32,000 nt of DNA from Ruminococcus albus 7 = DSM 20455 (GTDB taxonomy: Bacteria; Bacillota; Clostridia; Oscillospirales; Ruminococcaceae): NCBI RefSeq assembly GCF_000179635.2, contig NC_014833.1, forward strand, positions 1,590,001-1,622,000, written 5' to 3'. The notes beneath the pieces were generated by a model. That model saw only the letters and a list, made by a program, of their open reading frames with translations. It was not told the DNA's origin and did no database searches. Position 1 is the stretch's first letter; each line of letters opens with the position of its first letter. Both the position numbers and the translations under genes were made by a program. Of the stretch, positions 10,038 to 32,000 are shown in pieces.

Positions 10038-13000
10038 ATGATCAAAAATAAAATATTAAAGCGTATCGGCGCAGGGTTCTTGTCAGGACTCTGCGCTTTT
10101 TCTATGCTCGGGAGTTCGTTCTCTGATTCTTTCACAGCGAAAGCTGAAAGCATAAAAGAACCTTCTTTCCCGTCAGTTGACACGGTGGTTGCTCAGGCGG
10201 CTACTCTTCTTGGAACACGCTATGGCTACGGATTTAAAGGCTATTCGGGTGTATATTATAAAGGATCTTATTCACCTCTTTCAGAAGAGTGGATAAGAGA
10301 ACAGGGTATAGACTGCTCAGGTCTTATCTATTATACACTCACACATTTAGGCTATTCCACTTCCGGATTTTCATGGAACAATCCTGTTCCTGTAGATACT
10401 ATGCACTGGCTCACGCTTAACGATAACTGTACAGTCACATACGGCGGGGTGACATCAAAGATAGATGTCGAAAAGGAAAACATCGCTACAAGTAAGCGTC
10501 CTTATTGGGAATGTGCAGACGGTTCAACGATAACTCCGGGTTCTGTGGTCATCGCAAAAAATAATTATGGAGAAGATCATTCATGGATATATATGGGTGA
10601 GTTTGACAACAGAAATGAAGTCGTAAATTATCTTAAGAACATCGGTGTAAGGGAGTCTCTCATAAACAAAAATACTGTTGGTGACGGAAAAGGCGATGGC
10701 GGCAGACACTGGAGGATCGAGGCAAGCGGCAGTGAAGGTGTTGTTATAAACAACAAGACCGACGGTAAATCTACTTCCGCACTGAATATGTTCGGTTTCA
10801 GAATAACTTCACGTGATGTCAGCTTTGAAATAGACAAGTATGCAACAGACGGCACTCTTGTAGGCAGATCATCGGTAGACGGAAGTTCTGCAGTTTACGG
10901 AATCTATTCGGATAAGACCTGTAAGAATAAAGTGGCAGAGCTGACGATCGGTGCAAAGGGAAACGGTGCCGTAAAACTTCCTAACGGAACATACTATGCC
11001 AAGGAATTAAAAGCCCCTGCCGGCTATGCACTGGATAATACCGTATATACAATTAAACCCGGTAAAAATGTAGTTACCGAGGATTTCAAATACGGCAAGA
11101 TCATTATAAACAAGACAGCTGAGGATGGCATCATCGGCGGTCGTGAATTCAAGGTAACATGGAGCGAAAACGGCAAAACCAAGAGTAAAACTGCTAGGAC
11201 AGATGACAGCGGTGTCGCCAAGTTTGCTAATCTCAAGATCTATGATCTGGCTAACGGCAAGCCCATATCGTATAATGTTTCCGAGATAAACGTTGAAACA
11301 AGATATGAGACACCGAAAGCCCAGAACGTTACACTTACAGACGGCGATGCAGATTTTACAGTAGTAACTAAATTCAAAAATGAAACAAAGAAAGGCAGTA
11401 TACGCATAAACAAGCAGTCAGAGGATAACCAGAACGGTGACAGAACATTCGTTATAACAGGCAATGGTCAGACCTATACCATAAAGACCGCTTCAAACGG
11501 TATTGCCGAACTGACAGATATCCCTGTGTATGATAAGAACAACAATAAGATCACCTATACAATAAGTGAGAAAGATGTACCTGTCAGATATGTTACTCCT
11601 GCGAACCAGACTGCTACACTCACTGCCGATAAGACAACGACCAAAGTGTTTGAGAACAAGCTGAAAAAGTTTACGGCAGAGGTGACCAAGGTTGACAGAG
11701 AGACCGAACATCCTCAGGGAGATGCAACGCTTCAGGGTGCTGTTTACGGAATCTATAAGAACGGCGAGCTGGTAGATCAGTATACTACCGATAAAAACGG
11801 TCACTTTAAAACAAAGGAGTACCCATGCGGCAATTATACGATCAAGGAGATCAAGCCCTCAATGGGATATACTCTTGATACGACCGAGTACAATGTCGGT
11901 GCAGAGGAAAAGAACTACACTTCAGAGCATAATACAGTCGAAATGAAAGTATTCGAATCCCCCATCAAAGGTGACTTTTCACTTCTCAAGCACAGCGACA
12001 AGGACGATAATGGAATAGAGAACCTTGAAGCAGGCGCTGAATTCGATGTTTACCTCAAGAGCGCAGGCAGTTATGATAATGCCAGCGATACCGAGCGTGA
12101 CCATCTTGTTACAGACTTAAGCGGTCAGGCTAAGAGCAAAAAACTGCCCTACGGCGTGTATATCCTTCGTCAGACAAAAACTGTCAACGATGCGGAGATG
12201 ACTGCTGACATTGAGATAAATATAAGCAAGAATGATCAGTCCTATGAATACACTCTAAATAACAAGCCCTTTGAAAGCTATGTAAAGATCGTAAAGCGTG
12301 ATGCTGAATCAGGCAATAATATCGCTCTTGCAGGGGCAGGATTCGAGATATACAACAGTGCAGATGAGAAGATAGTGCTTGGAAGTACTTCCGTATATTA
12401 CACCAATGATGAAGGCTATCTTATCACTCCCGAAATGCTTGGATACGGCAGCTATAAGCTTGTTGAGGTGAAGGCTCCCGAGGGTTATGTTCTTGACAGC
12501 ACTCCTGTTGAATTCAGTGTAAACAGAGCAAACAGTTCCAAGGAAAATGCAGTCACTGTTGTTATAGTAGATAAATCCGATGCACCCCAGAAAGGCAGGA
12601 TAAGCGTACACAAGCAGGGCGATATATTCAGCGGAGTGACTTCTCTAGGCACTGTACTGTCGCAAGATGAGGACGGTGCTGTATACGAGGAAGGATATAC
12701 TACCTATACTCCTTGCTTCGATACAGGTTACCTTGAGGGTGCTGAGTTTGAGATAACTGCTGCTGAAGATATAATAACACCTGACGGCACAGTCCACGCA
12801 AAGGCGGGTGATCTTGTGGGTAAGATGACCACCGATGAGAACGGTTTTGCTCAGTCCAATCTGCTATATCTCGGAAAATACAATATAACTGAGACAAAGG
12901 CTCCTTACGGATATGTAAAGAACAATGAGACCAAGACAGCAGAGCTGACCTATGCGGGTCAGTATGTAGATGTATGCAGCACTGCCGACACATCCTTTAT

Positions 13001-14639
13001 AAATGGTTATCAGGGGGTAAATATCCATCTTACAAAATTCATGGAACATGACAGCATATATAATGTTGGCGGTAACGAAGATGCTTCAAGAGTTGAGTTC
13101 GGTCTGTTTGCAGACGAAGAGATAGTATCAAGAAGCGGTGCGGCTATTCCCAAGGACGGTCTCATATCAGTTGTTTCTGTAGGTGAGGATATGACAGCCC
13201 GATTTGATGTTAAACTCCCCTTTGGCAGATACTATGTTCAGGAGATATCAACTGATGAAAAGTATATTATCAGCGGTGAAAAGCATATCGTGACCTTTGA
13301 ATACGCAGGTCAGGACAACTATACAGTAGATATAGATGCAGGTGAATTTGTAAATGACCTTAAGAGAGGTTCTGTACAAGGCATAAAGGTCAATGAGCTT
13401 GACGAGCCTCTTGCAGATGCTCTGTTTGGTCTTTTCAGCGCAGACTGTGAGTTCTTTGACAGAGATAACGCAATAGAAACAGCACGTTCAGATGAAAACG
13501 GACATTTCAGCATCACAGGGATCCCATACGGATCATATATCCTTGCGGAAATCGCATCTCCCGACGGATATGTTTTGAGCAATGAAAGACACGGTGTTCT
13601 CATTGACGAAGATGGCGATGAGGTATTCATCACTGCTGTAAACAAGGAAACAGAGCTTCATGTTTCCAAGAAGGATATTTACGGAAACGAACTCTCGGGT
13701 GCTGCAATGCAGATCCTTGACAGCGAAGGAATAGTTTTCGATGAATGGATATCCGACGGCACCGAGCATATCGTCAGCGGCATTCCTGCTGGCAGCTACG
13801 TTCTTCATGAAACAGCAGCTCCTGTCGGCTTTGTTATAGCCGCGGATATAGCCTTCACCATAGACGAATATAACAAGGTCACTGTTGAGGATATATCTGC
13901 TTTAGCGAGTGATGAAAACGGTATCCCTGCCATTATCATGACAGATAACTCAACAAAGGTTGAGTTCACAAAGACAGATATCACAGGTGAAAGAGAACTC
14001 GAAGGAGCTAAACTTCAGGTCATTGACAAGGACGGGAACATCATTGATGAATGGATATCTTCAAATATATCTCATGTCATTGAGGGCATGCTGATCGCAG
14101 GAGAAGAGTATATCCTTCATGAAGAAATAAGTCCAGACGGTTACGTGACCGCTGAAGACATTACTTTCACAGTATCTGATGATGGAAAGATGGATAAGGT
14201 CACAATGAAAGATGATACCACAAAGGTACGCATCTCAAAGCGTGACATAACAACCAATGAAGAACTGCCCGGTGCGACACTTATTATAATGGATGAGAAT
14301 GGAAACACTGTCGAGGAATGGGTATCCACAAATGAAGGACATTTTATAGAGGGAAAACTTGTCGCAGGCAAGATCTACACTCTTCGTGAGATAACTGCAC
14401 CTGATGGCTATGAAGTGGCTAATGATGTTCAGTTTACCGTTAACGAGGATGGTTCTGTGACGGAAGTAGTCATGTATGATAAAAAGAAGTCAAGTCCAAA
14501 GATCCCGTCAAGCCATAATCCTCATACGGGAAGTATATATGGAAATTCTCTGATCAACAAGTCGCTTGCTGCAATGGCTGTATGTGTTCTTATCATGGTG
14601 ATCACAAAGAAAAAGAATAAGAAGGAGGACGATGAATGA
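10038..14639 (+). CDS. Giant cell-wall-anchored surface protein: signal peptide, NlpC/P60 hydrolase domain, many Cna-B/SpaA-type repeats, NPHTG sorting-like signal
   Basis: NlpC/P60 motifs are GIDCSGLIYYTL (Cys) and DHSWIYMG (His). There are more than 10 repeats with the Y.L.E..AP.GY.L signature. The C-terminus is NPHTG, then a hydrophobic stretch (SLAAMAVCVLIMVIT), then KKKNKKEDDE. Confidence 0.9.
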   Translation: MIKNKILKRIGAGFLSGLCAFSMLGSSFSDSFTAKAESIKEPSFPSVDTVVAQAATLLGTRYGYGFKGYSGVYYKGSYSPLSEEWIREQGIDCSGLIYYTLTHLGYSTSGFSWNNPVPVDTMHWLTLNDNCTVTYGGVTSKIDVEKENIATSKRPYWECADGSTITPGSVVIAKNNYGEDHSWIYMGEFDNRNEVVNYLKNIGVRESLINKNTVGDGKGDGGRHWRIEASGSEGVVINNKTDGKSTSALNMFGFRITSRDVSFEIDKYATDGTLVGRSSVDGSSAVYGIYSDKTCKNKVAELTIGAKGNGAVKLPNGTYYAKELKAPAGYALDNTVYTIKPGKNVVTEDFKYGKIIINKTAEDGIIGGREFKVTWSENGKTKSKTARTDDSGVAKFANLKIYDLANGKPISYNVSEINVETRYETPKAQNVTLTDGDADFTVVTKFKNETKKGSIRINKQSEDNQNGDRTFVITGNGQTYTIKTASNGIAELTDIPVYDKNNNKITYTISEKDVPVRYVTPANQTATLTADKTTTKVFENKLKKFTAEVTKVDRETEHPQGDATLQGAVYGIYKNGELVDQYTTDKNGHFKTKEYPCGNYTIKEIKPSMGYTLDTTEYNVGAEEKNYTSEHNTVEMKVFESPIKGDFSLLKHSDKDDNGIENLEAGAEFDVYLKSAGSYDNASDTERDHLVTDLSGQAKSKKLPYGVYILRQTKTVNDAEMTADIEINISKNDQSYEYTLNNKPFESYVKIVKRDAESGNNIALAGAGFEIYNSADEKIVLGSTSVYYTNDEGYLITPEMLGYGSYKLVEVKAPEGYVLDSTPVEFSVNRANSSKENAVTVVIVDKSDAPQKGRISVHKQGDIFSGVTSLGTVLSQDEDGAVYEEGYTTYTPCFDTGYLEGAEFEITAAEDIITPDGTVHAKAGDLVGKMTTDENGFAQSNLLYLGKYNITETKAPYGYVKNNETKTAELTYAGQYVDVCSTADTSFINGYQGVNIHLTKFMEHDSIYNVGGNEDASRVEFGLFADEEIVSRSGAAIPKDGLISVVSVGEDMTARFDVKLPFGRYYVQEISTDEKYIISGEKHIVTFEYAGQDNYTVDIDAGEFVNDLKRGSVQGIKVNELDEPLADALFGLFSADCEFFDRDNAIETARSDENGHFSITGIPYGSYILAEIASPDGYVLSNERHGVLIDEDGDEVFITAVNKETELHVSKKDIYGNELSGAAMQILDSEGIVFDEWISDGTEHIVSGIPAGSYVLHETAAPVGFVIAADIAFTIDEYNKVTVEDISALASDENGIPAIIMTDNSTKVEFTKTDITGERELEGAKLQVIDKDGNIIDEWISSNISHVIEGMLIAGEEYILHEEISPDGYVTAEDITFTVSDDGKMDKVTMKDDTTKVRISKRDITTNEELPGATLIIMDENGNTVEEWVSTNEGHFIEGKLVAGKIYTLREITAPDGYEVANDVQFTVNEDGSVTEVVMYDKKKSSPKIPSSHNPHTGSIYGNSLINKSLAAMAVCVLIMVITKKKNKKEDDE
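13650..14480 (+). repeat. Three tandem ~88-100-aa domain repeats inside the surface-protein gene
   Basis: The units share K.DI.G.EL.GA.L.I.D..G....EW.S....H.I.G....G.Y.L.E...P.GY......I.FT. They start at about 13650, 13950 and 14215 and have diverged at DNA level. Confidence 0.7.
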
Positions 14640-17700: not shown

Positions 17701-19482
17701 TTGAATGAACATCAGATGATAACGATAGGGCTGATGGCGGCTGCATTTATCATATTTTATGTTGTAATTAATGTTCTGGATAACAAGAACATCAACAGGA
17801 TAAAAAGCAAAACAGTAGGTGACGGACAGCATGGAACAGCCAGATGGGCGACCAAGCCTGAGATCAGACGAACTTTTTCTTCTTCGCCATTTGCTCCCGA
17901 AGACTGGAGACAAGGCAAAAACTTGCCGTCTGTTCAGGGAACAGTCGTCGCCTGCAGGGGTGGAAAGCATACGACTGCACTTGTAGATACAGGAGATGTA
18001 CACACCCTGATGATAGGCGCGGCAGGTGTAGGTAAAACCGCGTATTTTCTGTATCCGAATATTGAGTTTGCCTGCGCCTCAGGTATGAGTTTTTTATCGA
18101 CCGATACAAAAGGCGATGTTGCCCGAAACTACGGCAGGATAGCACGTGACTGCTATGGCTACAATGTGTCTGTAATCGACCTGAGAAATCCGACCAGAAG
18201 TGATGAAAACAATATCCTGCACCTTGTAAACAAATATATGGACATCTATCTGAACGACCGCACCAACTTGTCAGCAAAGGCGAAAGCAGAAAAATACGCT
18301 AAGATAACAGCCAAGACTATAATCAATATCGGCGGCGGTGACAGTGCAAACTACGGACAGAATGCTTTCTTCTACGATGCCGCCGAAGGACTGCTGGGTT
18401 CGGTAATACTTCTGCTTGCTGAATTCGGAGAAAAGAATGAACGGCATATAGTATCCGTGTTCAAGCTTATACAGGATCTTATCTCCAAACCGCCTGCCAA
18501 AACAGCCAAGTACAAGCCTAAGATGTATTTTACAACACTTATGGAAAAACTTCCCTCTGAACACAAAGCCAAGTGGCTTGCGGGAGCAGCGCTGAACAGT
18601 GCAGATCAGTCTATGATGTCTGTTATGAGTACGGCTTTATCAAGGCTCAACAGCTTTCTCGACTCTGAGATGGAGCAGATACTCTGTTTTGGAACAGCTA
18701 TAGATGCAGAGGTCTTCTGCCGTGAAAAATCGGCAATATTCATCATACTTCCGGAGGAAGATCAAAGCAAGTATTTCATGGTGTCATTGCTTATACAGCA
18801 GCTTTATCGTGAGATACTCACCATAGCCGATGAGAACGGCGGTACGCTTACGGACCGAGTCATGTTTTACTGTGATGAATTTGGAACATTTCCGAAAATA
18901 GAGGGCGCAGAAGCAATGTTCTCTGCAGGACGATCAAGAAAGATCTCTATCGTAGCGATCATACAGTCATTTGCACAGCTTGAACAGAAATATGGAAAAG
19001 AGGGTATGGAGATCATAACCGACAACACTCAGCTGACAGTGTTCGGCGGATTTGCACCAAACTCTCAGTCTGCGGAAGTGCTGTCCAAGGCTCTTGGTGA
19101 GCAGACTGTTCAAAGCGGATCAGTATCGCTGGGCAAAGAGCGATCGCAGTCAATACAAATGATGGGCAGACCGCTTATGACGGTCGATGAGCTGAAAAGT
19201 ATGCCCAAGGGACAGTTCATCGTAATGAAAACGGGTACACACCCGATGAAAAGCAAACTTAAACTATATTTCAAGTGGGGCATCAGGTTTGGCGAGCCGT
19301 TCCTGCTTGAGGACAGAGGTGCCAGACGTGTGGACTATGCCGAAAGAGACAGACTTATATCTGCAGTTGAGCAAAAATATCCGCAGAAAACACCGATGCG
19401 GTCAGAACCTGCAGATAATGGATTTATACCAATGGATACAGATTTCGCATCAAAGACTAAAGCAAATGTAAGGACTGAATAA
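17701..19482 (+). CDS. Type IV coupling protein (VirD4/TraG family)
   Basis: TTG start lies 7 nt after GGGAG. There is an N-terminal TM helix. GTARWAT is present; Walker A is MIGAAGVGKT; the Walker B-like segment is VMFYCDEFGT. At 593 aa it is typical of Gram-positive T4CPs. Confidence 0.9.
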   Translation: MNEHQMITIGLMAAAFIIFYVVINVLDNKNINRIKSKTVGDGQHGTARWATKPEIRRTFSSSPFAPEDWRQGKNLPSVQGTVVACRGGKHTTALVDTGDVHTLMIGAAGVGKTAYFLYPNIEFACASGMSFLSTDTKGDVARNYGRIARDCYGYNVSVIDLRNPTRSDENNILHLVNKYMDIYLNDRTNLSAKAKAEKYAKITAKTIINIGGGDSANYGQNAFFYDAAEGLLGSVILLLAEFGEKNERHIVSVFKLIQDLISKPPAKTAKYKPKMYFTTLMEKLPSEHKAKWLAGAALNSADQSMMSVMSTALSRLNSFLDSEMEQILCFGTAIDAEVFCREKSAIFIILPEEDQSKYFMVSLLIQQLYREILTIADENGGTLTDRVMFYCDEFGTFPKIEGAEAMFSAGRSRKISIVAIIQSFAQLEQKYGKEGMEIITDNTQLTVFGGFAPNSQSAEVLSKALGEQTVQSGSVSLGKERSQSIQMMGRPLMTVDELKSMPKGQFIVMKTGTHPMKSKLKLYFKWGIRFGEPFLLEDRGARRVDYAERDRLISAVEQKYPQKTPMRSEPADNGFIPMDTDFASKTKANVRTE

Positions 19483-19497
19483 GGGGGGATCCATAAT

Positions 19498-19767
19498 TTG
19501 ATAGTAGCAAGAAGGATTTATGATACAGACCTTCCTCATCGTGCGATAACTGTTTTTTGTTATCTTTGTGACAGGTCAAATAAAAAAGGCGAATGTTTCC
19601 CGTCATCACGAACCATAGCCAAAGATCTGAATATTAGCCGAAGGACTGTGTTTCGAGCTCTTAATGACCTTGAAAAAGAAGGATTTATAAAGAGAAAAGG
19701 CAGGCACAGGACAAGCGGCGGCAGATCTTCAAATCTGTATGTGCTGGAGGTGAAGCCCGATGTTTGA
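19498..19767 (+). CDS. Winged helix-turn-helix protein (replication-initiator/DnaD-like HTH common in ICEs)
   Basis: TTG start lies 9 nt after AAGGGGGG. The sequence contains FPSSRTIAKDLNISRRTVFRALNDLEKEGFIKR. Confidence 0.65.
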   Translation: MIVARRIYDTDLPHRAITVFCYLCDRSNKKGECFPSSRTIAKDLNISRRTVFRALNDLEKEGFIKRKGRHRTSGGRSSNLYVLEVKPDV

Positions 19768-20686
19768 ATGGATAGGTGATGTGATAGATTGGATCGGTGA
19801 AGGGATATCTTCACTTTGGGACAGCACGGTAGGAGCGGCAGCAGATGCTATAACGGTGACAGTCTGGGATATGATGTTCAAGTGGCTGTTTGAAACGATA
19901 TACGGAGCTATAGCCGGTCTTTTCAAATTTATAAACAGCACAACTAATGACATATTTACTCTTTCATGGGTAAAAACCTTTATTGCATTATTTAATGCGA
20001 TGGGCTGGATGCTGTTTATCTGTGGATTTATAGTAGCAGTATTTGATTGTGCTGTAGCCTACGAGAACGGTTCCGCCAACATCAAGAATACGGCTATAAA
20101 CATCTTTAAAGGCTTTATGGCAGCATCACTTGTCACAGTGGTACCGCCGAAACTGTATGCTACCTGCACAAGCTTGCAAGGTTCTTTCGCCCTGGACCTT
20201 ATGGGCAATTTTGTCAGTGACACCATCTCTACCATTAGTGATACGGCACAAGCAGTAGTAATAGAAATAGCTATGGAAGTATCTCTTCTGAATCTGCTGT
20301 TCATAATACTGTTTGGCTACTGCACGGTCAAGGTAGTTTTGGCAAACATCAAGCGCGGCGGTATACTGCTTTGTCAAATCGCAGTCGGAAGTCTGTATAT
20401 GTTCGGAGTGCCCAGAGGGTATACCGATGGTTTCTACAACTGGTGCAGGCAGGTCATTGCTACCTGTCTTACTGCATTTTTACAGACCACGATCTTATAT
20501 ATTGGTCTGCTTACCTATACAGAACACGCTCTTATTGCAGTAGGTCTGTGTTTATCAGCGAATGAAGTTCCGAGGGTAGCTCAGATGTACGGACTTGATA
20601 CTAGCGTTAAAGTCAATGTTACAAACGTAAGTCAGAGCGTCAATATGGGCGGTAAAGTCATGGGACTTATGAGAGGTACAAGATAA
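19760..20686 (+). CDS. Polytopic membrane protein, VirB6/TrbL-like T4SS channel component
   Basis: The start overlaps the upstream gene by 8 nt. There are at least 6 hydrophobic helices. It sits between the coupling protein and the PrgI/VirB4 genes, as in Clostridial ICEs. Confidence 0.7.
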   Translation: MFEWIGDVIDWIGEGISSLWDSTVGAAADAITVTVWDMMFKWLFETIYGAIAGLFKFINSTTNDIFTLSWVKTFIALFNAMGWMLFICGFIVAVFDCAVAYENGSANIKNTAINIFKGFMAASLVTVVPPKLYATCTSLQGSFALDLMGNFVSDTISTISDTAQAVVIEIAMEVSLLNLLFIILFGYCTVKVVLANIKRGGILLCQIAVGSLYMFGVPRGYTDGFYNWCRQVIATCLTAFLQTTILYIGLLTYTEHALIAVGLCLSANEVPRVAQMYGLDTSVKVNVTNVSQSVNMGGKVMGLMRGTR

Positions 20687-22661: not shown

Positions 22662-23165
22662 ATGGTGGACTACAAAGAGATACTCAGGCTTACCAGTATT
22701 ATTCAGGGACAGGGGACCATTCCGAGAGATGAGTCAGACCGAAATATCAGTTATAACAAGGCTTCTATCCCGACGTATAAACTCGTTAAGGAAAACGACT
22801 TTATTATGCATCTTCGTCCGTTCGAATGGGGACTGGAGATTGCTACAAGGGAAGGCATTGTCAGCCCTGCATACACGATTTTGAGAAACAAGGTTGAACT
22901 GGTTCCAGAGTTCTATCGGTATTATTTCAGGTCTTCAAGCTTTATTGTGGAAAAGCTGACAGGGATTACCGAAGGTATCCGTGATGGACGTTCCATCAAT
23001 ATGGATGACTTCTGGCTCTTAGAGATTCCTTACCCGTCTATTCCAGAACAGAGAAAAATCGGTCAGTTCATGGACCTGATAAACAGGCAGATACAGATTG
23101 AAAAGGATAAGCTGCAAGCCATCAAGTTGGTAAAGAAAGGTCTGCTTCAGCAGATGTTTGTGTGA
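22662..23165 (+). pseudogene. Chimeric ORF: IS21-IstA-like first ~13 codons fused to the C-terminal half of a type I restriction specificity subunit (HsdS)
   Basis: From about codon 20 the sequence is a typical HsdS target-recognition domain plus conserved tail: GIVSPAYTIL...EFYRYYFRSSSF...IPYPSIPEQRKIGQFMDLINRQIQIEKDKLQAIKLVKKGLLQQMFV. The N-terminal TRD is missing, and no hsdM or hsdR is nearby. Confidence 0.7.
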
Positions 23166-24545: not shown

Positions 24546-24606
24546 ATTAATATGAATAATTGTAATTTGTCACATTGCGAATTTTGATTATTTGTTTAGG
24601 GGTGAT

Positions 24607-26058
24607 ATGATGTTAATAAGACGCATTCTGTTTAACAGGCTAATATCGTTGATGTTAGTTGTCTCGATTTTGCTTATGACCGTTGGTTGCTCTAATGCAC
24701 CGCCAACTCCTACTATTTCAGATGCAAATCCGCAGACGGTTACGGAGAACATTGAGGTTGAAAACATTATTACAGAGGATATACTCCATGAGTTTATCAC
24801 AACTGAGGTCTATTTGCAGGAATTTGTCATAGCCGAAGATAAAATTACAGAGTTGTTGCTGGAAGAAGATATGATCGATGAAGTAACAATGTGTAAGACT
24901 ATCTATGTACCTCAAGAACATCTTGAAGACTTTTCTGAGAACAGCCAAACAGCGCAAATATTTGGTGATGGAGTTGATATTAAATCAGTACTAACAAAAG
25001 TAGCGATAGGTACTGGTGTAATTGTCACACTTGCTGTTGTAAAAAAAGTTGGTGTTCCTAAGCCAATCGCCAGCCTTGTTGTAGCCGCTGCTGATGAATC
25101 TCTTCAGTTTGCAAAATCAGGTGCTGTGGTCGGAACAGTGTTTGGAGCTTTTACTGGTGCTGGCAATGAAATCGATGAGACTGGACGAATAGCTGCTGTA
25201 ACCGGGTTTGCATTGGCTACTGTTGGAATGATTGTATCAATTGTTTCTTTGGTCGGTGCAATTCCTTCCGGTGGAACATCGAGCGTGGGTGTCGCAGAAG
25301 GAGTACACTTAGCTTGGGCAGGTGTGAAAGTTCTGCTCGCAACGGCAGGAATGGTATATACCACAAAAGATACTATCAAAGCATTTACATCTACTGATGC
25401 CGCCGATATTGATTGGAACAATATTGATTGGGAAAAAGTAGGAGTTTCAGCAGCTCAAAAAGCAGTTGAAAATGGTGCGGACGGCTATATGTGGGGAGCT
25501 ATATACGGAGCAATTGACGGCACAATAGAAGAATATTATCATAAGTATAGCACACCATACACCAAATATAATGATCGTTTGAAGCAAGTTCCTAAAGATG
25601 GCAAAAAAGGAAAATGGACAGGAAAAAGGGGCGAATCGGATTTTGTCCTTAACGAACCAATAGAGCTTCCAGACGGAACAAAAATTACAAAAGTTACATA
25701 TCAGAATGCAGTACCGGATTTTTCTCCCTATGCTAAAGCAGAGGTGAAAATACCGAGAATGACCGATAAACGATTAGGAACAGGCGGCAACTATGAACAA
25801 GCTGACCAAGCTCTTGCTGAATATTGGACAAAGATTAAGTATAACTTCGATGCAGTGAACAATGTCACTACATACGAATTTACAGCTAATGCATCTAAAA
25901 CATCAGTCGATCAGGAATGTGTTATCCAGTTTGTCCCGAACGCAGTTGGTGAAGTTCCGATGACACTTGTATTCGATGATAATGTTGATCCTTCATATGA
26001 TAAACAGAGTACTCTGATATTTGTAGAGAAAAAAGAAGAAAAGACGGAGGAAGAGTAA
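24607..26058 (+). CDS. Membrane-anchored polymorphic-toxin-like protein: signal/lipobox-like N-terminus, Gly-rich hydrophobic central region, N-terminal half of an HNH/EndoVII-type nuclease toxin domain, unrelated acidic tail
   Basis: AGGGG RBS precedes ATG 24607/24610. The lipobox-like segment is LLMTVGCS. WTGKRGESDFVLNEPIELPDGTKITKVTYQNAVPDFSPYAKAEVKIPRMTDKRLGTGGNYEQADQALAEYW matches the pre-catalytic half of LXG/colicin-DNase-like toxins as I remember them. No ..TWH(H/E)...H.GG catalytic half follows. Confidence 0.65.
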   Translation: MMLIRRILFNRLISLMLVVSILLMTVGCSNAPPTPTISDANPQTVTENIEVENIITEDILHEFITTEVYLQEFVIAEDKITELLLEEDMIDEVTMCKTIYVPQEHLEDFSENSQTAQIFGDGVDIKSVLTKVAIGTGVIVTLAVVKKVGVPKPIASLVVAAADESLQFAKSGAVVGTVFGAFTGAGNEIDETGRIAAVTGFALATVGMIVSIVSLVGAIPSGGTSSVGVAEGVHLAWAGVKVLLATAGMVYTTKDTIKAFTSTDAADIDWNNIDWEKVGVSAAQKAVENGADGYMWGAIYGAIDGTIEEYYHKYSTPYTKYNDRLKQVPKDGKKGKWTGKRGESDFVLNEPIELPDGTKITKVTYQNAVPDFSPYAKAEVKIPRMTDKRLGTGGNYEQADQALAEYWTKIKYNFDAVNNVTTYEFTANASKTSVDQECVIQFVPNAVGEVPMTLVFDDNVDPSYDKQSTLIFVEKKEEKTEEE

Positions 26059-26633
26059 TGACAGGCTATTGGATCAGGCACAGAGCCTTATTATCAATAA
26101 TCCTGAGTGCTGTCATTGCTGTAGTAGCCGGACTGTTGTTTGTGTTCCCGTTTATTTCTCAGATTGCGGATAACTATAATTCGCAGAGCGTTTATAAAAA
26201 CACAAATATTGACTTTATCGCTCCTGAGCCGTCTTTTGAGCAGATAAGCGAATTGCCTGGGAGCAATGGGATTGATAAGGTGTTCCCCTTCTTTCTGACT
26301 AAAACTGCTGTAAACGCAGGCGGTAATTCGAGGACAACAACAGTTCTGCTGAGTGACCGCTTTGAAAACGTCGATATTACGATAGCTTGTAATTTTCGCA
26401 GGCTTGTAATGCTCGGATTTGAGAAGAAAAAGCTGAATCAAGCGTATCATAGTTATATATGTAGGTCAGGAGTCATTACTATAATATTCGCTTTTGCCCT
26501 ATCAAGCATAGTATTCCTATTCGCTGATATTACAGCTATTAGAATAATACTTGTAATATGGATACCGTTGATCGAGCTGATAACACTATTTACAGCGGCT
26601 ACAATAATCAATAGACGGTTATGGAGGAAATAA
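26058..26633 (+). CDS. Shortened FtsX-like ABC permease (191 aa; apparent in-frame internal deletion)
   Basis: The TAATG overlaps the upstream stop. The order is TM1, the start of an extracytoplasmic domain, then directly an FtsX-type cytoplasmic loop (RRLVMLGFEKKKLNQAY) and two TM helices. Normal FtsX/MacB permeases are about 2-4 times longer. Confidence 0.55.
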   Translation: MTGYWIRHRALLSIILSAVIAVVAGLLFVFPFISQIADNYNSQSVYKNTNIDFIAPEPSFEQISELPGSNGIDKVFPFFLTKTAVNAGGNSRTTTVLLSDRFENVDITIACNFRRLVMLGFEKKKLNQAYHSYICRSGVITIIFAFALSSIVFLFADITAIRIILVIWIPLIELITLFTAATIINRRLWRK

Positions 26634-26635
26634 TC

Positions 26636-27400
26636 ATGGAAAGCATTATCAGCATAAATAACCTATCAATACAGCTCAAACAACGGGTGTTGATGCAGAA
26701 CATTTCCTTTGATGTCGGCAGCGGTGAAGTAGTTTTGCTATCAGGCGAAAATGGTATCGGCAAAAGCTCAATCTTGAAAAGCATTATGCGTTTGGAAACA
26801 GAGGGCAAGAAAATAGGCGGAGAGATCATTCACCATAGCTTCGGAAATATCATGGCGTTAGATGATACTGAACTCCAGCGGTATCGTTCGAGTATTGCAT
26901 ACATACCACAGAAAGATGAATATTCCGAAATGGGACGCATACAGGTAAGAGATGTCATCAGTAACAGCGGTGAAGCTCATTCTGAAAGCTACATGAGCTA
27001 TTCAGAGGTCAATGACCTTATTGACGAATGGCTTCCACGCCGAGGAGATAACAGCAGAATTTTTGATGCCAAGTCTCGCCCTGGCAAATTCAGCGGTGGT
27101 GAGCAACGGCTTCTCCAAGTATTCTCTGTCATTGCAACCCGTTCAGATTCGGATTTGCTGATTATAGACGAACCGCTTAACAACCTTGACTTTGTAAACG
27201 CAAGGCATATAAGCAATCTTATCAATAAGGTTATCCACGAGAATCCGAAGATGGGCGTTTTAATGATAAGTCATTGCAGGATATTCCCGTTTATCACACG
27301 GGAACTGAAATTGACTGCTGACGGGATAAGTGAGGTTTCTAAACCATATACCTGTCATAGTTGTTTTGGTGAGCCTGATGAAAACGGATTTTATACGTAA
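26636..27400 (+). CDS. ABC transporter ATP-binding protein
   Basis: GGAGG lies 8 nt before ATG 26636. Motifs: Walker A GENGIGKSS, Q-loop YIPQ, signature FSGGEQRL, Walker B LLIIDEPLNNLD, H-loop ISHC. Confidence 0.9.
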   Translation: MESIISINNLSIQLKQRVLMQNISFDVGSGEVVLLSGENGIGKSSILKSIMRLETEGKKIGGEIIHHSFGNIMALDDTELQRYRSSIAYIPQKDEYSEMGRIQVRDVISNSGEAHSESYMSYSEVNDLIDEWLPRRGDNSRIFDAKSRPGKFSGGEQRLLQVFSVIATRSDSDLLIIDEPLNNLDFVNARHISNLINKVIHENPKMGVLMISHCRIFPFITRELKLTADGISEVSKPYTCHSCFGEPDENGFYT

Positions 27401-27409
27401 TACATACGA

Positions 27410-27452
27410 AAACAGGCAGATACCATAATAATGAAGTATCCGCCTGTTTTTT
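27410..27452 (+). terminator. Rho-independent terminator after the ABC ATPase gene
   Basis: aaacaggc-a-gatac ... gtatc-c-gcctgttt forms an 8+5 bp interrupted stem followed by a T-tract. Confidence 0.6.
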
Positions 27453-27504
27453 AATAGCTCGATGTAAAGATCTTGAGGGCAATATTATAAAGGATGAATG
27501 GTAT

Positions 27505-27747
27505 ATGACCACTCGTATCAATATCAGAAATCTGCCCAATGTTCATCACATCTGGTTCTACATAGACTCTGAGGGCAAAGTTATTTTGCACAGACCTAAC
27601 ACATCTATGGCTATCGCATTCGGAAGAAAGGGCGACAAGCTGTATGCTTATGACAAAAACGGCGAACCCCTTGATGGATTATACACCGGCAGCTCATACT
27701 TCTGGCGTTTTGATAACGGCGAGCTTATTGATACAAACTGCTTCTGA
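27505..27747 (+). CDS. Small cytoplasmic protein (80 aa), unknown function
   Basis: AAGGA RBS, no signal peptide. GDKLYAYDKNGEPLDGLYTGSSYFWRFDNGEL is reminiscent of cell-wall-binding/YG-type repeats. A strong terminator follows. Confidence 0.5.
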   Translation: MTTRINIRNLPNVHHIWFYIDSEGKVILHRPNTSMAIAFGRKGDKLYAYDKNGEPLDGLYTGSSYFWRFDNGELIDTNCF

Positions 27748-27790
27748 TAAAAGTTCGATACGCGAAGATCGGACTTGATTCCCCAAATAC

Positions 27791-27836
27791 GGATCGTGTA
27801 CGGGATAATATCCCTGCACGGTCCTTTTTATTTTTA
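27791..27836 (+). terminator. Rho-independent terminator
   Basis: ggatcgtgtacggg-ataatat-ccctgcacggtcc forms a ~13-bp stem with one bulge followed by tttttattttt. Confidence 0.7.
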
Positions 27837-27885
27837 AAGTATATTTCCACTCACTCCGATTTTTCTACCGCTCACTCTCAAAAAA

Positions 27886-27914
27886 CTGACTTTCCTGCCA
27901 CGGTGTGCTATACT
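27886..27914 (+). promoter_or_regulatory. Promoter for the lectin-peptidase gene (~170-nt leader)
   Basis: CTGACT (27886-91), a 17-nt spacer, then TATACT (27909-14). It shares the block TGACTTTCYTGCCA with the promoter at 24517. Confidence 0.5.
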
Positions 27915-28087
27915 TCAAGTACAGTCAAACAACGAGATGCAACAAACTAAAATCCGTAATTTCCAAGCAGAGCATTTGGGTAATTCACTTGATTATCAGT
28001 TCGTTCTGAACAGGAAAAAATATCGGATTTTGTAAACTGCATTTGAGTTGGAACCTAAAATTTTAAAATCTGAAAGGAAGAAACAAA

Positions 28088-29107
28088 ATGAAAACAAACA
28101 ACGTAACAGGAACAATGAAGAAGGTCATCAGCACTTTGGCAGCAACAGGCTGTATGTTCTCAATGGCAGCTGCTATACCCGCAAACAGCACAATTGGTAG
28201 TGCTGTACTTGGTAACGCAGTCGTTGCAGACGCAGCAGTTATCAGCGTAAACACAGTTGTTGACGCAAAGAACGGCAACGCAGATCTGGTACAGGGTAAA
28301 TTCTATAAATCACCTTCTCAGAATTATGTACTTGTGTTCCAAAACGACGGCAACCTCGTTATTTATCATTACAACAAGACCACTGATAAGGCATACTCAC
28401 CTATCTGGAGCTCTCAGACCGAGAACAGAGGCGGTACAAAGTGCGTTCTTCAGGGTGACGGCAACTTTGTTATCTACAGATCCGACGGAAAGCCTATCTG
28501 GAACACTCAGACAAACGGCAAAAAGGGCGCTTATCTTACAATAAGCGATGAGGGCGAGATCAAGATCACTTCCAGAAATTATAACTATGCTACCACATGG
28601 TCAAGCAAAAATAACCACGGTTACAGTATCAATCAAGGTCCGATTATAACAGATCCTGTAGACGGTCAGCTCTCTCCACATTTCCACTCAAGAGAATTTG
28701 CCTGCGATTGCGGTAATACCCATACAATTGATCAGAACCTCATCAACAAGCTGGAGCAGCTCTATACCAAACTGAACTGTTCAAAGATCATCGTAAACTC
28801 CGGTTACCGTGATCCTAATTGTTCTGTTGCAGTTGGCGGCGGTTACGATGATGCACATACCCGCGGTTTGGCAGCAGATGTCGTTTGCTATGACAAAAAC
28901 GGCAATGTGATCCCTTGCTTAACAGTTGCATGGGCAGCAGAACAGATCGGATTCACAGGCATAGGTCTGATGTACGGCGGTGCGATCCACCTTGATGTCC
29001 GCACTACCAGCAACTATAAAAACGGTCATTGGTTCGGCGATGAAAGAAAAGAATACAAAAATGACTATATTTCTACTTTCAAAAACTACGTACCACACAA
29101 AGCTTGA
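28088..29107 (+). CDS. Secreted bulb-type (MMBL) lectin domain fused to a peptidase M15 (D-Ala-D-Ala/cell-wall zinc peptidase) domain; lectin-like bacteriocin candidate
   Basis: AAAGGAAG RBS and a Sec-type signal (MKKVISTLAATGCMFSMAAAIPANS). There are two exact QxDxNxVxY motifs (FQNDGNLVIY, LQGDGNFVIY) plus a degenerate third. M15 motifs are SGYRDPNCSVAVGGGYDDAHTRGLAADV and GGAIHLDV. Confidence 0.85.
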   Translation: MKTNNVTGTMKKVISTLAATGCMFSMAAAIPANSTIGSAVLGNAVVADAAVISVNTVVDAKNGNADLVQGKFYKSPSQNYVLVFQNDGNLVIYHYNKTTDKAYSPIWSSQTENRGGTKCVLQGDGNFVIYRSDGKPIWNTQTNGKKGAYLTISDEGEIKITSRNYNYATTWSSKNNHGYSINQGPIITDPVDGQLSPHFHSREFACDCGNTHTIDQNLINKLEQLYTKLNCSKIIVNSGYRDPNCSVAVGGGYDDAHTRGLAADVVCYDKNGNVIPCLTVAWAAEQIGFTGIGLMYGGAIHLDVRTTSNYKNGHWFGDERKEYKNDYISTFKNYVPHKA

Positions 29108-29175
29108 TTAATTGCATGAATACATAAAGGAAAAGACAGGTACTTCAATAGTAAGCGTCAACCGCTAACATATGC

Positions 29176-29209
29176 TATCAAAGAAACAGGCTCACCAAGG
29201 TGAGCCTGT
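29176..29209 (-). terminator. Terminator hairpin downstream of tnpC
   Basis: acaggctcac-caag-gtgagcctgt forms a perfect 10-bp stem. On the minus strand it is followed by ttctttgat. Confidence 0.55.
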
Positions 29210-29216
29210 CTGAATA

Positions 29217-30749
29217 TCATATAGTGAATGGAAGGAGAATTGTTCCTGCCGGCTGTGAGAACAGCTCTGTCAGATACTGCTCTGTGTTCAGCCCGTTAGC
29301 CTGAGCCGTTGCAACGATTGAATACAGCGCTGCGCTTGCTTTCGCACCGTTCGCCGTATTGCTGTGCATCCAGTTCTTTCTGCCAACAGCAAAGGGCCTT
29401 ATGGCATTTTCGGCACGGTTATTGTCTATCGGAACATTCCCGTTTTCCAGAAACGTGTATAGATACGGTTTTTCATTCAGCGCATAAGCTACTGCCTTGG
29501 CAAGAGCACTCTTTCCGCTGACCTGAAGCGTTTCAAGCCACGCAAAGAAAGCATCGAGCAAAGGCTTGACCTTTGCCAGACGCTGCTCATATCTTTTCTC
29601 AGCCGTCATGCCTGACAGCAGGTTTTCTTCATGGTATATCCGCTCAAAGTATCTGACCGCTTCTGCTGCAATCGACGTTTCCTGTGCAGACTTATCCTTA
29701 GGCAGTGCATTGACGAAATACCTTCGGGCATGAGTCATGCAGCCACAGTGCTTTACACCAGTAACCACATGATATCCGCTGTATCCGTCACGCACCAGAT
29801 ATCCGTCAAAGCCTTTCAGAAACGCCTGTGCATTCTTTCCCTTGCGGGTAGGCTTGTAGTCGAAAATGACGATGCTGCGGTCATTCATCTTTCCATTGCA
29901 GTATACCCACATCTTCGATTCAGCCGTTGCCTTCCTGCCTTCCTCATGCAACACCTGTATGCGTGTCTCGTCTGCATGGACGACGTCTCCGCAAAGCAAC
30001 AGCCTGTGCATTTCCTGCACTATCGGCATACACCACTTCTCAGCTGCTGTACATACCCAGTTAGACATGGTAGCTTTCAGCAGAGGGATATGCTTTGATG
30101 CAAGATCTTTCTCCTGACGATGCAGCGGAACGGCCTTTGCATATTTTTCATAGATGATGTGCGCCAGCAGTTCCGGTGAACAGAAGCTGCCTGGTATCAT
30201 AGGCTTAGGGTACTCAGCACGGCGGATATTGCAGCGCTCGATGTCTTCAGAATGATCTGCATCGTTCTCAGGCTTTTCGCCGCACTCAGGGCATTTGTAG
30301 GTATACACGATATGTCTGCGGACATGGAACTTTGCAGGCGTGTAGACAAGTTCGTCATACGCCTTTTCCTGACCTATCTCCTTCATTTCAGAACCGCAGT
30401 TCTCACAAACGGGATGATCTTCCTTATGCTCGACTATCTCGAAATCCATTGTTTCCATCCAGTCATCGTGAGTACGCTTCTTTCTGCGTTTATGCTCAGG
30501 GACTGTGACTGACTCAGCTATGTTCTGTGTCTGCGGCTTCTCTTCCTCCGGAAACAGAGAGAGCTGTGTGCAGTTATCCAGTATGACAGAGCTTTGCTCG
30601 GTCTTGCGTCCGAACACCTGTTTTTTGAGCCAAGTCAGCTGTTCCTGTACAAAGGCAAGCTCTTCTTCAAGCACGGCAACTCTTGAACGGAGCGCAGCAT
30701 TTTCCTGTGCCATTGTCATGTCATTTTTTACTGAATTCAGCTCAGACAT
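29217..30749 (-). CDS. tnpC: IS66-family transposase TnpC
   Basis: GGAGGGAG RBS precedes the ATG giving MSELNSVKND, so the track start at 30779 is probably too early. The N-terminal leucine-zipper-like segment is LEEELAFVQEQLTWLKKQVFGRKTEQ. Zinc-finger motifs are CENCGSEM and CPECG. The DDE region looks typical of IS66. Confidence 0.9.
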   Translation of the reverse strand: MSELNSVKNDMTMAQENAALRSRVAVLEEELAFVQEQLTWLKKQVFGRKTEQSSVILDNCTQLSLFPEEEKPQTQNIAESVTVPEHKRRKKRTHDDWMETMDFEIVEHKEDHPVCENCGSEMKEIGQEKAYDELVYTPAKFHVRRHIVYTYKCPECGEKPENDADHSEDIERCNIRRAEYPKPMIPGSFCSPELLAHIIYEKYAKAVPLHRQEKDLASKHIPLLKATMSNWVCTAAEKWCMPIVQEMHRLLLCGDVVHADETRIQVLHEEGRKATAESKMWVYCNGKMNDRSIVIFDYKPTRKGKNAQAFLKGFDGYLVRDGYSGYHVVTGVKHCGCMTHARRYFVNALPKDKSAQETSIAAEAVRYFERIYHEENLLSGMTAEKRYEQRLAKVKPLLDAFFAWLETLQVSGKSALAKAVAYALNEKPYLYTFLENGNVPIDNNRAENAIRPFAVGRKNWMHSNTANGAKASAALYSIVATAQANGLNTEQYLTELFSQPAGTILLPFTI

Positions 30750-30841
30750 ACTGCTCCCTCCGTTCCTTAAACTATACATATATTATACCACAATACAAGC
30801 GAAAAAGCAAGGAAAATAGGCAAATTCTCCTTGCTTTTCGT

Positions 30842-31198
30842 TCAATAGATAAGCCCTGGTTGACCGTCTCTGATCGCTTTCGGCTGATCGATCGTCAGGC
30901 CTTCAAGCAGCCATCTTGTCTGCTGAGGTGTCAGCAGTTTTGCCTCGGTTTCATTGCGAGGCCATTGAAACTGACCGTTGTCTAAGCGCTTGTACAACAA
31001 AAGAAATCCGTCTCGCTCCCACAGGAGACCTTTTATGCGGTCACGTCGTCTGCCGCAGAACAGAAAGAGAGCGCTGCTGAACGGATCGAGTCTGAGCTGC
31101 CCCTGTATTATCATGGCAAGTCCATCAATGGAACGGCGCAGATCGGTGTAACCGGTGACGAGGTAGACCTGCTGATTTGAAGAAAGATCGTTCAGCAT
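30842..31198 (-). CDS. tnpB: IS66 Orf2 (TnpB) accessory protein
   Basis: VYLVTGYTDLRRSIDGLAMIIQGQLRLDPFSSALFLFCGRRRDRIKGLLWERDGFLLLYKRL is the hallmark IS66 TnpB sequence. Confidence 0.9.
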   Translation of the reverse strand: MLNDLSSNQQVYLVTGYTDLRRSIDGLAMIIQGQLRLDPFSSALFLFCGRRRDRIKGLLWERDGFLLLYKRLDNGQFQWPRNETEAKLLTPQQTRWLLEGLTIDQPKAIRDGQPGLIY

Positions 31199-31515
31199 AG
31201 GGCTTTCACCAGAGAGAGGAGAGTTTCGGGATCGATGTCTGACGGCAACGAGATCTGAAGATCATTTTTACCTATGTGGATCTCTGACTGACACTGCTGC
31301 TGCGGAATGTTGAGAGGAACTATGGCCGGAGCTTCAACGAACTGTTCACGGATCTTTTTCAGCCGGCAGTAGTAAGTGTTCGGCTTGATGCCGTTTTCTT
31401 CACACCACTGCTTTATGGTCAGGCCGCTTGCCTGCTGTGCTTTGATAAGTTCCGACCATTCCTGCAGGCGTACTGCCTGTCTGATCGTTGCGATCTCTGT
31501 TGTTTTATTCTGCAT
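31192..31515 (-). CDS. tnpA: IS66 Orf1 (TnpA) HTH accessory protein
   Basis: GGGAGG RBS precedes the ATG giving MQNKTTEIATIRQAV. The stop overlaps the tnpB start by 7 nt, as is usual in IS66. Confidence 0.8.
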   Translation of the reverse strand: MQNKTTEIATIRQAVRLQEWSELIKAQQASGLTIKQWCEENGIKPNTYYCRLKKIREQFVEAPAIVPLNIPQQQCQSEIHIGKNDLQISLPSDIDPETLLSLVKALC

Positions 31516-31858
31516 AATGATACCTCCCGTGTCCAACGGACTCTAATTTACTACATGGAGCTTTTTGAAGTTTTTTGGAATGTCCAATTTACTACATCAA
31601 GTTTCTTGGAGTTTATTATACATCATTGGACAACGGGAGGGAAGACGCGGGATATTTTACTCTTACTTTTGGATAATATTCAATTTACGTTACTAACCCA
31701 TTATCAAAACGAATATCGCTTGAGTTAGTTTGTGAATTGTTATACATGGTTATCCCTTTAACACACCACAGATAATTTACAATGCTGTCCAAATAAACAG
31801 ACCTCAAAACTCAGAAAATATAGTATAATAGTGACAGAAACCGAAGGGAGCTGTCGCT

Positions 31859-32000
31859 ATGTCAAAAAGATTTCCGAAACCTGAGATCACACTTGATGGG
31901 ATATACTCAAAGTTCGCAGATGAAAGCTTTTGCAAGGATTTTCTGCTTGATATCCGCTTTGAAAAGGGCTTTGCCTGCCCGTTTTGCGGTGGCTCTGAGT
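31859..32000 (+). CDS. IS1595-family transposase, N-terminal zinc-ribbon region (runs off window)
   Basis: MSKRFPKPEITLDGIYSKFADESFCKDFLLDIRFEKGFACPFCGGSE fits the F..E..C..YL...RW..GF.CP.CG pattern of IS1595/ISXO2-like transposases. GGGAG RBS. A TATAAT lies at 31824-29. Confidence 0.65.
   Translation, partial: MSKRFPKPEITLDGIYSKFADESFCKDFLLDIRFEKGFACPFCGGSE

Follow-up and report, generated by a model that had tools for sequence, protein, structure and literature searches.

The 32,000-nucleotide window analyzed here, a stretch of the Ruminococcus albus 7 chromosome (NC_014833.1, positions 1,590,001 to 1,622,000), contains a 339-aa open reading frame (ORF) on the forward strand (28088–29107) that, judged from its sequence, is almost certainly albB, the gene for albusin B, a secreted class III bacteriocin of ~32 kDa. 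Taken as a whole, the explanation that best accounts for these data, and in which we place high confidence, is that the ORF encodes albusin B, that the protein would combine lectin targeting with cutting by an M15 peptidase, and that a LytTR-type promoter would drive it. Published accounts already cover the gene and its product, the antibacterial activity and the two-domain layout, and the literature extends to yeast that expresses albusin B and was fed to broiler chickens; the novelty implied by an earlier note on this DNA therefore falls away. What the window adds to albusin B is genomic context only: an IS66 element that interrupts the terminator, an upstream gene that is truncated, and a conserved candidate operator.

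We identify the ORF as albusin B because its sequence exactly matches a deposited bacteriocin, its neighbors are those of R. albus 7, and its domain layout is the published one. An exact-sequence look-up returned ADU21929.1, WP_013498098.1, AAL73547.1 and UniRef100_Q8VPZ8, and UniProt names Q8VPZ8 "Bacteriocin" of Ruminococcus albus. The flanking proteins, a TrbL-like ORF at 19760 (ADU21918.1) and an IS66 transposase (ADU21930.1), both belong to R. albus ATCC 27210/DSM 20455. Albusin B of R. albus 7 was reportedly described by Chen, Stevenson and Weimer in 2004, in an abstract said to give 32,168 Da. The mature protein computed from A50 onward comprises 290 aa and 32,167 Da, which fits the reported ~32 kDa. 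According to one paper, albB (AF469209) of R. albus 7 gives rise to albusin B, a 32-kDa class III bacteriocin (PMC5205609); another describes a B-lectin plus peptidase M15 (PF08291) layout and activity against another species (PMC6240691), and this layout agrees with our Pfam result for the 339-aa ORF. Published work also describes albusin B as purified from culture supernatant and as inhibiting Ruminococcus flavefaciens. These data bear out the earlier note's proposal of a secreted bulb-lectin/M15 bacteriocin, possibly related to albusin B, and the features on which it drew (a Sec signal, two perfect bulb-lectin motifs, a degenerate third and an M15 signature) are all present in the ORF.

The N-terminal half of the mature protein is a single MMBL (B-lectin) domain, with the motifs QNDGNLVIY (aa 85–93) and QGDGNFVIY (aa 122–130) intact and a third, SDEGEIKIT (~aa 153–161), degenerate. 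A phmmer search of the PDB returned pyocin L2 (E = 4.7e-21), pyocin L1 (1.4e-17) and putidacin L1 (5.7e-16), together with many plant bulb lectins. The NCBIfam model LLB_putidacin (NF033557) gave a partial match of 97.9 bits against a cut-off of 275, covering profile positions 142–237 of 274, and aligns with one of its two lectin halves only. An AlphaFold2 (AF2) model of the mature protein reached a predicted local distance difference test (pLDDT) score of 86.9, and Foldseek matched it to MMBL lectins (probability 1.00) and to LlpA. The β-prism II fold and QxDxNxVxY motifs by which MMBL domains are recognized are both present, as judged from the motifs, the PDB search and Foldseek. LlpA proteins (putidacin L1, pyocin L1/L2) share this fold and these motifs with AlbB and provide the top matches, in sequence and in structure, to its residues 61–175. 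Membership of the LlpA/putidacin L1 family nonetheless takes two MMBL domains in tandem and a score no lower than 275, and AlbB, with one lectin domain, falls outside it: LlpA carries two tandem lectin domains and no enzyme and acts on Gram-negative cells, whereas AlbB carries one lectin and a zinc peptidase and has a Gram-positive target. Another bacterial protein that, like AlbB, pairs a single MMBL domain with a peptidoglycan-related module is MSL of Mycobacterium smegmatis (B-lectin plus LysM, PDB 4OIT) (PMC6465234), but in MSL the partner is LysM, which binds rather than hydrolyzes, and MSL is not known to act in antagonism.

A short linker, in which mature residues 133–143 are the sole disordered stretch of the model (pLDDT <50), leads into the peptidase. 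Pfam Peptidase_M15_3 (PF08291) matches aa 197–303 at 46.5 bits (E = 4.7e-12; gathering score 23.2), with profile positions 1–108 fully covered. The M15 motifs are SGYR (aa 238–241), H257-x6-D264 (HTRGLAAD) and H301-L-D303; the zinc ligands (H-x6-D and the downstream H) and the SxxR substrate motif are all present, and among 37 aligned family members S238, G239, Y240, R241, H257, H301 and D303 are invariant and D264 nearly so. The C-terminal domain, modeled separately with AF2 (pLDDT 90.2), adopts the LAS fold; its top Foldseek match is 1LBU, followed by LysECD7, LysB4 and ChiX, with hedgehog N-domains and VanX also matched. As modeled, the M15 domain is a LAS/hedgehog-DD-peptidase fold. A family profile search of the PDB found 1LBU (E = 5.9e-05) as the sole solved structure detectable by sequence profile. 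This zinc D-Ala-D-Ala carboxypeptidase of Streptomyces albus G (MEROPS M15A) shares with AlbB the block SG(Y/F)R...VGG...H-x6-D, at 26% identity over 122 aligned columns. Its catalytic domain is paired with PG_binding_1, as in the R. albus paralog P0016, and AlbB has its lectin in place of PG_binding_1.

The overall design recalls the class III bacteriolysins (lysostaphin, zoocin A and enterolysin A), large secreted proteins that join a wall-targeting module to a LAS-type or M23 zinc peptidase. The logic is the same as that proposed here for AlbB, and R. albus paralogs also use M23; the domain order is reversed, however, with targeting N-terminal in AlbB, and a lectin replaces the SH3b-type domain. 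Moreover, the lysostaphin/zoocin type has linked immunity, whereas no FemABX-like gene or other dedicated immunity gene was found adjacent to the AlbB family in the window or in loci L001, L002, L007 and L009. In this respect AlbB resembles LlpA, which also lacks a linked immunity gene.

The N-terminal leader comprises an n-region (MKTNNVTGTMKK) and a hydrophobic stretch (VISTLAATGCMFSMAAAI), and the predicted cleavage site, A-D-A↓A, spans residues 47–50. A leader of ~49 aa is conserved among paralogs with different domains (P0002, P0003, P0006, P0016, P0027 and an ORF of L013). Its segment between the hydrophobic core and the cleavage site is common to paralogs (...ST(I)G..(I/V)(F/L)GN(A/S)(I/V)VA(D/S)A↓A); this long segment may represent a pro-segment or a second processing step.

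Full-length lectin–M15 relatives (72–73% identity) were found in Ruminococcus only, in R. albus 8 (L001), SY3-type strains and metagenome-assembled genomes (MAGs), and L006 is an uninterrupted allele with 99% AlbB protein identity. Elsewhere, the leader and lectin of AlbB (89–92% identity) are joined to Peptidase_M23 (P0006 and P0027), the leader and M15 domain (72%) are joined to PG_binding_1 (P0016 and many others), and longer forms carry an extra C-terminal domain (P0007 and P0008). By blastn, window positions 27475–28629 share 96% DNA identity with the lectin–M23 locus L002, and the match ends at the interdomain linker. Since the lectin pairs with M23 and M15 pairs with PG_binding_1 in relatives, both halves are tied to peptidoglycan, and this module swapping supports a division of labor in which the N-terminal module would target the wall or surface and the C-terminal module would hydrolyze peptidoglycan. 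A metagenome allele (L010, 135–1154) is itself a mosaic, in which a strain-7-type M15 core lies between a leader and lectin of SY3 type and a C-terminal tail that is also SY3-type, and therefore indicates recombination within the albusin family.

The earlier note had given the gene its own promoter and a leader of ~170 nt, and a promoter-like site that would give such a leader is present: the promoter scan alone was not above chance, yet the site is conserved in all relatives. Upstream of it, two 9-bp direct repeats with starts 21 bp apart end 5 nt before the −35-like hexamer. This 9-12-9 arrangement is present in all related loci and invariant in an alignment of six divergent ones, and its pattern has 1 exact match in the window where 0.02 would be expected by chance. 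A pair of 9-bp repeats, separated by 12 bp and located immediately 5′ of the −35 element, is the layout of the PlnC/PlnD site in LytTR-regulated bacteriocin promoters (PMC2714321). The −10 element and the next 25 nt are invariant across relatives, and a 28-nt promoter core is exact in six loci and five metagenome contigs. The genes behind this promoter encode lectin–M15, lectin–M23, PG_binding_1–M15 and PG_binding_1–Hydrolase_2 proteins, the Hydrolase_2 being SleB-like. We consider that this conserved promoter, with its candidate LytTR-type 9-12-9 operator, probably drives albB expression. No riboswitch or other known RNA was detected in the leader, with no Rfam match at gathering thresholds across the whole window and chance-level matches only (E ≥ 0.055) in 27400–28300. 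A 32-codon upstream ORF (27937–28035) that starts from an invariant ATG is probably non-coding; its peptide is unconserved, and the SY3-type leader stops, by eye, after two codons.

Downstream of the albusin-family gene in R. albus 8, MAG RUI259 and a metagenome contig lie three convergently oriented genes, which encode a protein of 147–159 aa that weakly resembles GyrI-like/DUF5085 proteins, a histidine kinase of the AgrC-like GHKL type and a response regulator of the LytTR type (EGC04137.1 in R. albus 8). The same four-gene order occurs in three more assemblies, as judged from consecutive accession numbers, and the tail of L006, after the 99% allele, holds the 3′ end of the 147-aa gene. The same 21-bp-spaced repeat also precedes the 147-aa gene and the regulator–kinase operon in both divergent loci. 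In the strain 7 window, IS66 intervenes where relatives carry this two-component system. The earlier note's statement that the gene has no immunity partner is accordingly true within the window, but relatives keep conserved downstream neighbors that IS66 displaces here. The 147-aa neighbor was considered as an immunity protein and set aside: it gave only weak DUF5085/GyrI-like matches and has no sequence relative in the PDB. No paper linking LytTR control to albusin in R. albus was found.

We tentatively propose, with slightly less than even confidence in the whole, that albusin B is one of a co-regulated R. albus family of secreted peptidoglycan hydrolases assembled from interchangeable modules. 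As a joint proposal, its members would share a promoter with a LytTR-type 9-12-9 operator, a 5′ leader and a long signal peptide; targeting modules (B-lectin, PG_binding_1) and warheads (M15, M23, SleB-like Hydrolase_2) would be exchanged by recombination in the linker; the neighboring AgrC-like kinase and LytTR regulator would exert control; and, in strain 7, IS66 would have severed albB from its regulatory neighborhood and terminator. We found no report of a modular R. albus hydrolase family under a common LytTR-type promoter in the literature searched.

Comparative evidence backs lectin targeting plus peptidoglycan cleavage as the putative killing mode of albusin B. The protein would be exported by Sec and cleaved between A49 and A50, after which the lectin domain would bind a carbohydrate of the Gram-positive target envelope, either a wall polysaccharide or a glycoprotein. 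The tethered M15 domain would then cleave a peptide bond, located either in the stem or in the cross-link of the peptidoglycan, and so weaken the wall, while the producer would escape through a missing lectin receptor or a different wall chemistry rather than through a linked immunity gene.

Several points weigh against this picture. Of the two profile checks that the earlier note had suggested, the M15 domain scores above its gathering score, but Pfam B_lectin (PF01453), at 31.2 bits, lies marginally under its own of 32.4; the lectin is nevertheless secure because of the PDB, NCBIfam and Foldseek matches, and we regard its assignment as unambiguous. The c-region of the signal peptide is unusually long, with 19 residues separating the predicted cleavage site from the hydrophobic core. 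The equation of AAL73547.1 with the product of AF469209 is drawn from names, organism and mass. Likewise, synteny and a motif suggest the LytTR link, and the two-component genes lie outside the window. The accessible literature contains no experiment on muralytic activity or sugar binding by albusin B (PMC6465234). Finally, transcription of the R. albus bacteriocin gene was very low in a gnotobiotic sheep model (PMC8092306), and the ecological role of albusin B is uncertain for this reason.

That poor transcription in vivo (PMC8092306) would also suit a housekeeping or stress autolysin that acts in wall remodeling or daughter-cell separation, and R. flavefaciens would then be inhibited only incidentally, by a secreted peptidoglycan hydrolase. 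The lack of an immunity gene linked to albB points the same way, as do several R. albus paralogs that combine the AlbB leader with the ordinary wall-binding domain PG_binding_1. We nevertheless consider an autolysin unlikely: the published activity hits another species (PMC6240691), the lectin is of the type found in LlpA bacteriocins, the family is patchy, recombining and located beside mobile DNA, as is typical of antagonism genes, and a LytTR system, the usual regulator type of bacteriocin loci, adjoins it. The lectin raises a different prospect, in that pyocin L1/L2 and putidacin L1 carry, at their C-termini, the domains most similar to it, and it might by itself be toxic through contact with an essential surface protein, the M15 domain being accessory or inactive. 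This LlpA-like killing is very improbable, since according to the LlpA literature LlpA requires its two tandem MMBL domains and acts at the Gram-negative outer membrane, whereas albusin B has one lectin domain, a Gram-positive target and an LLB_putidacin score far short of the cut-off (97.9 against 275 bits); moreover, all M15 catalytic and metal residues are conserved, and paralogs swap the lectin and retain a hydrolase.

Least probable of all, to the point that we give it almost no weight, is that the ORF encodes a lysin of a mobile element, be it the endolysin of a prophage or a peptidoglycan hydrolase that serves the type IV secretion system of the adjacent conjugative element. M15_3 domains are common in phage endolysins, as seen in GH25+M15_3 proteins and in PHROG endolysin family 894, which matches the AlbB M15 domain with E = 6.5e-25, and TraG/VirD4, TrbL and other conjugation genes lie at 16–21 kb of the window. 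Albusin B, however, carries a Sec signal, and the prophage lysis cassettes that the earlier note had raised as a sign of an endolysin did not appear around its homologs: no holin or phage structural gene was found in the four neighborhoods inspected (L001, L002, L007 and L009), which instead feature dockerin glycoside hydrolases, CRISPR type III genes, LRR/DUF285 surface proteins, xylanases, IS elements and two-component systems. A tblastn search of 50,697 phage records matched the M15 domain only, at <40% identity, and the full architecture was absent from these records, as it was from viral contigs, a scan of which found no relative. Orthologous loci lack conjugation genes, and since synteny with other albB loci covers only 27475–29150, albB is not part of the conjugative element.

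The flanks of albB in strain 7 are disrupted on both sides (Table 1). On the left, blastn homology to the albB loci L002 and L006 starts at 27475, and because the upstream ORF is only the C-terminal 80 aa of a longer protein, the locus is truncated there; the remnant (Pfam LRR_5) shares 98.75% identity over these 80 aa by blastp with an intact 805-aa LRR_5 gene of a related MAG (L002, 3025–5442). A palindrome at 27409–27450 adjoins this break and gave spurious miRNA matches on both strands. On the right, homology to the uninterrupted L006 allele ends at 29150 and IS66 begins at 29151, which agrees with the 43 bp that the earlier note had placed between the albB stop and the element. Alignment with L006 places the IS66 insertion within the loop of the terminator hairpin of albB. 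A search for the hairpin's right arm did not find it in the window, so the insertion extends beyond position 32000. The inverted-repeat search revealed no convincing terminal inverted repeat for IS66. A further ORF (31859–32000), which opens with MSKRFPKPEITLDG...CPFCGGSE, is cut off by the window's end and resembles the zinc-ribbon N-terminus of another transposase; the arrangement suggests stacked insertion sequences downstream of albB.

The earlier note overstated matters in calling albB the only clearly intact cargo of its region, as an ABC ATPase ORF (26621–27400) has a full ABC_tran domain. Two ORFs before it (488 and 191 aa, region 24592–27400), which might represent a broken permease, have no Pfam match. 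This ABC transporter (24592–27400) was considered as an export or immunity partner and rejected: other albB loci share homology only from 27475 onward, and in none of the relatives does the transporter adjoin the gene. Farther upstream, 22662–23165 encodes a 167-aa fragment of a type I restriction S subunit, and positions 1–21000 resemble a conjugative element, with C5 and N6 DNA methylases, a Bro-N/ANT antirepressor, LPD28, YodL/DUF3846, SpoVG, a 1533-aa SpaA-repeat adhesin (10038–14639), DUF3852, a Toprim protein, TraG/VirD4 (17701–19482) and TrbL (19760–20686). A plasmid origin was also rejected: a megablast search of 27000–31600 against PLSDB gave no match, and the window is chromosomal.

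Table 1. Features of the albB locus and of related loci; coordinates refer to the window unless a locus is named.
Feature	Position	Strand	Remarks
Upstream-gene remnant	27475–27747	+	ORF 27505–27747 corresponds to the last 80 aa of an 805-aa LRR_5 protein
Two 9-bp direct repeats, 12-bp gap	27851–27880	+	TCACTCCGA-N12-TCACTCTCA; candidate LytTR-type operator
Promoter-like site	27886–27914	+	−35-like CTGACT, 17-nt spacer, extended −10 TGcTATACT (27906–27914)
5′ leader, ~170 nt	27915–28087	+	First 25 nt (27915–27939) invariant, middle variable; ribosome-binding site GAAAGGA at ~28072–28079
Conserved promoter cassette	27851–27939; L001 9755–9839; L002 5545–5629; L007 9777–9860; L009 9832–9915; L010–L014		
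Signal/leader peptide	28088–28234	+	aa 1–49; predicted cleavage ADA↓A, from sequence features and mature mass
Single MMBL (B-lectin) domain	28271–28612	+	~aa 62–175; two intact QxDxNxVxY motifs, one degenerate
Interdomain linker	28613–28675	+	Disordered in the model; breakpoint relative to the lectin–M23 paralog at ~nt 28629
Peptidase_M15_3/LAS-fold zinc peptidase domain and stop	28676–29107	+	aa 197–339; Pfam, alignment, AF2, Foldseek
Left arm and loop of albB intrinsic terminator	29133–29150	+	Cut by IS66; intact L006 allele: GACAGGTACTTCAATAAAGTGCCTGTCTTTTATT
IS66-family element	29151–31536	-	Begins GTAAGCG at 29151; range given as far as the third ORF; DDE_Tnp_IS66, zf-IS66, TnpB_IS66 (Pfam)
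IS66 ORFs	29217–30779; 30842–31198; 31192–31536		Transposase (ADU21930.1); TnpB-like; third ORF with sub-threshold HTH_Tnp_1
Downstream trio	L001 11287–13914 (-); L002 7037–9685; L011 5058–7685		

For albusin B itself, the swapping of modules among R. albus paralogs yields a testable prediction, namely that targeting is the task of the lectin and killing that of the zinc peptidase. The common promoter with its LytTR-type repeats, together with the neighboring two-component system, suggests how R. albus switches on its wall-degrading weapons, and regulation of the albusin family in turn bears on competition among the fiber-degrading bacteria of the rumen.

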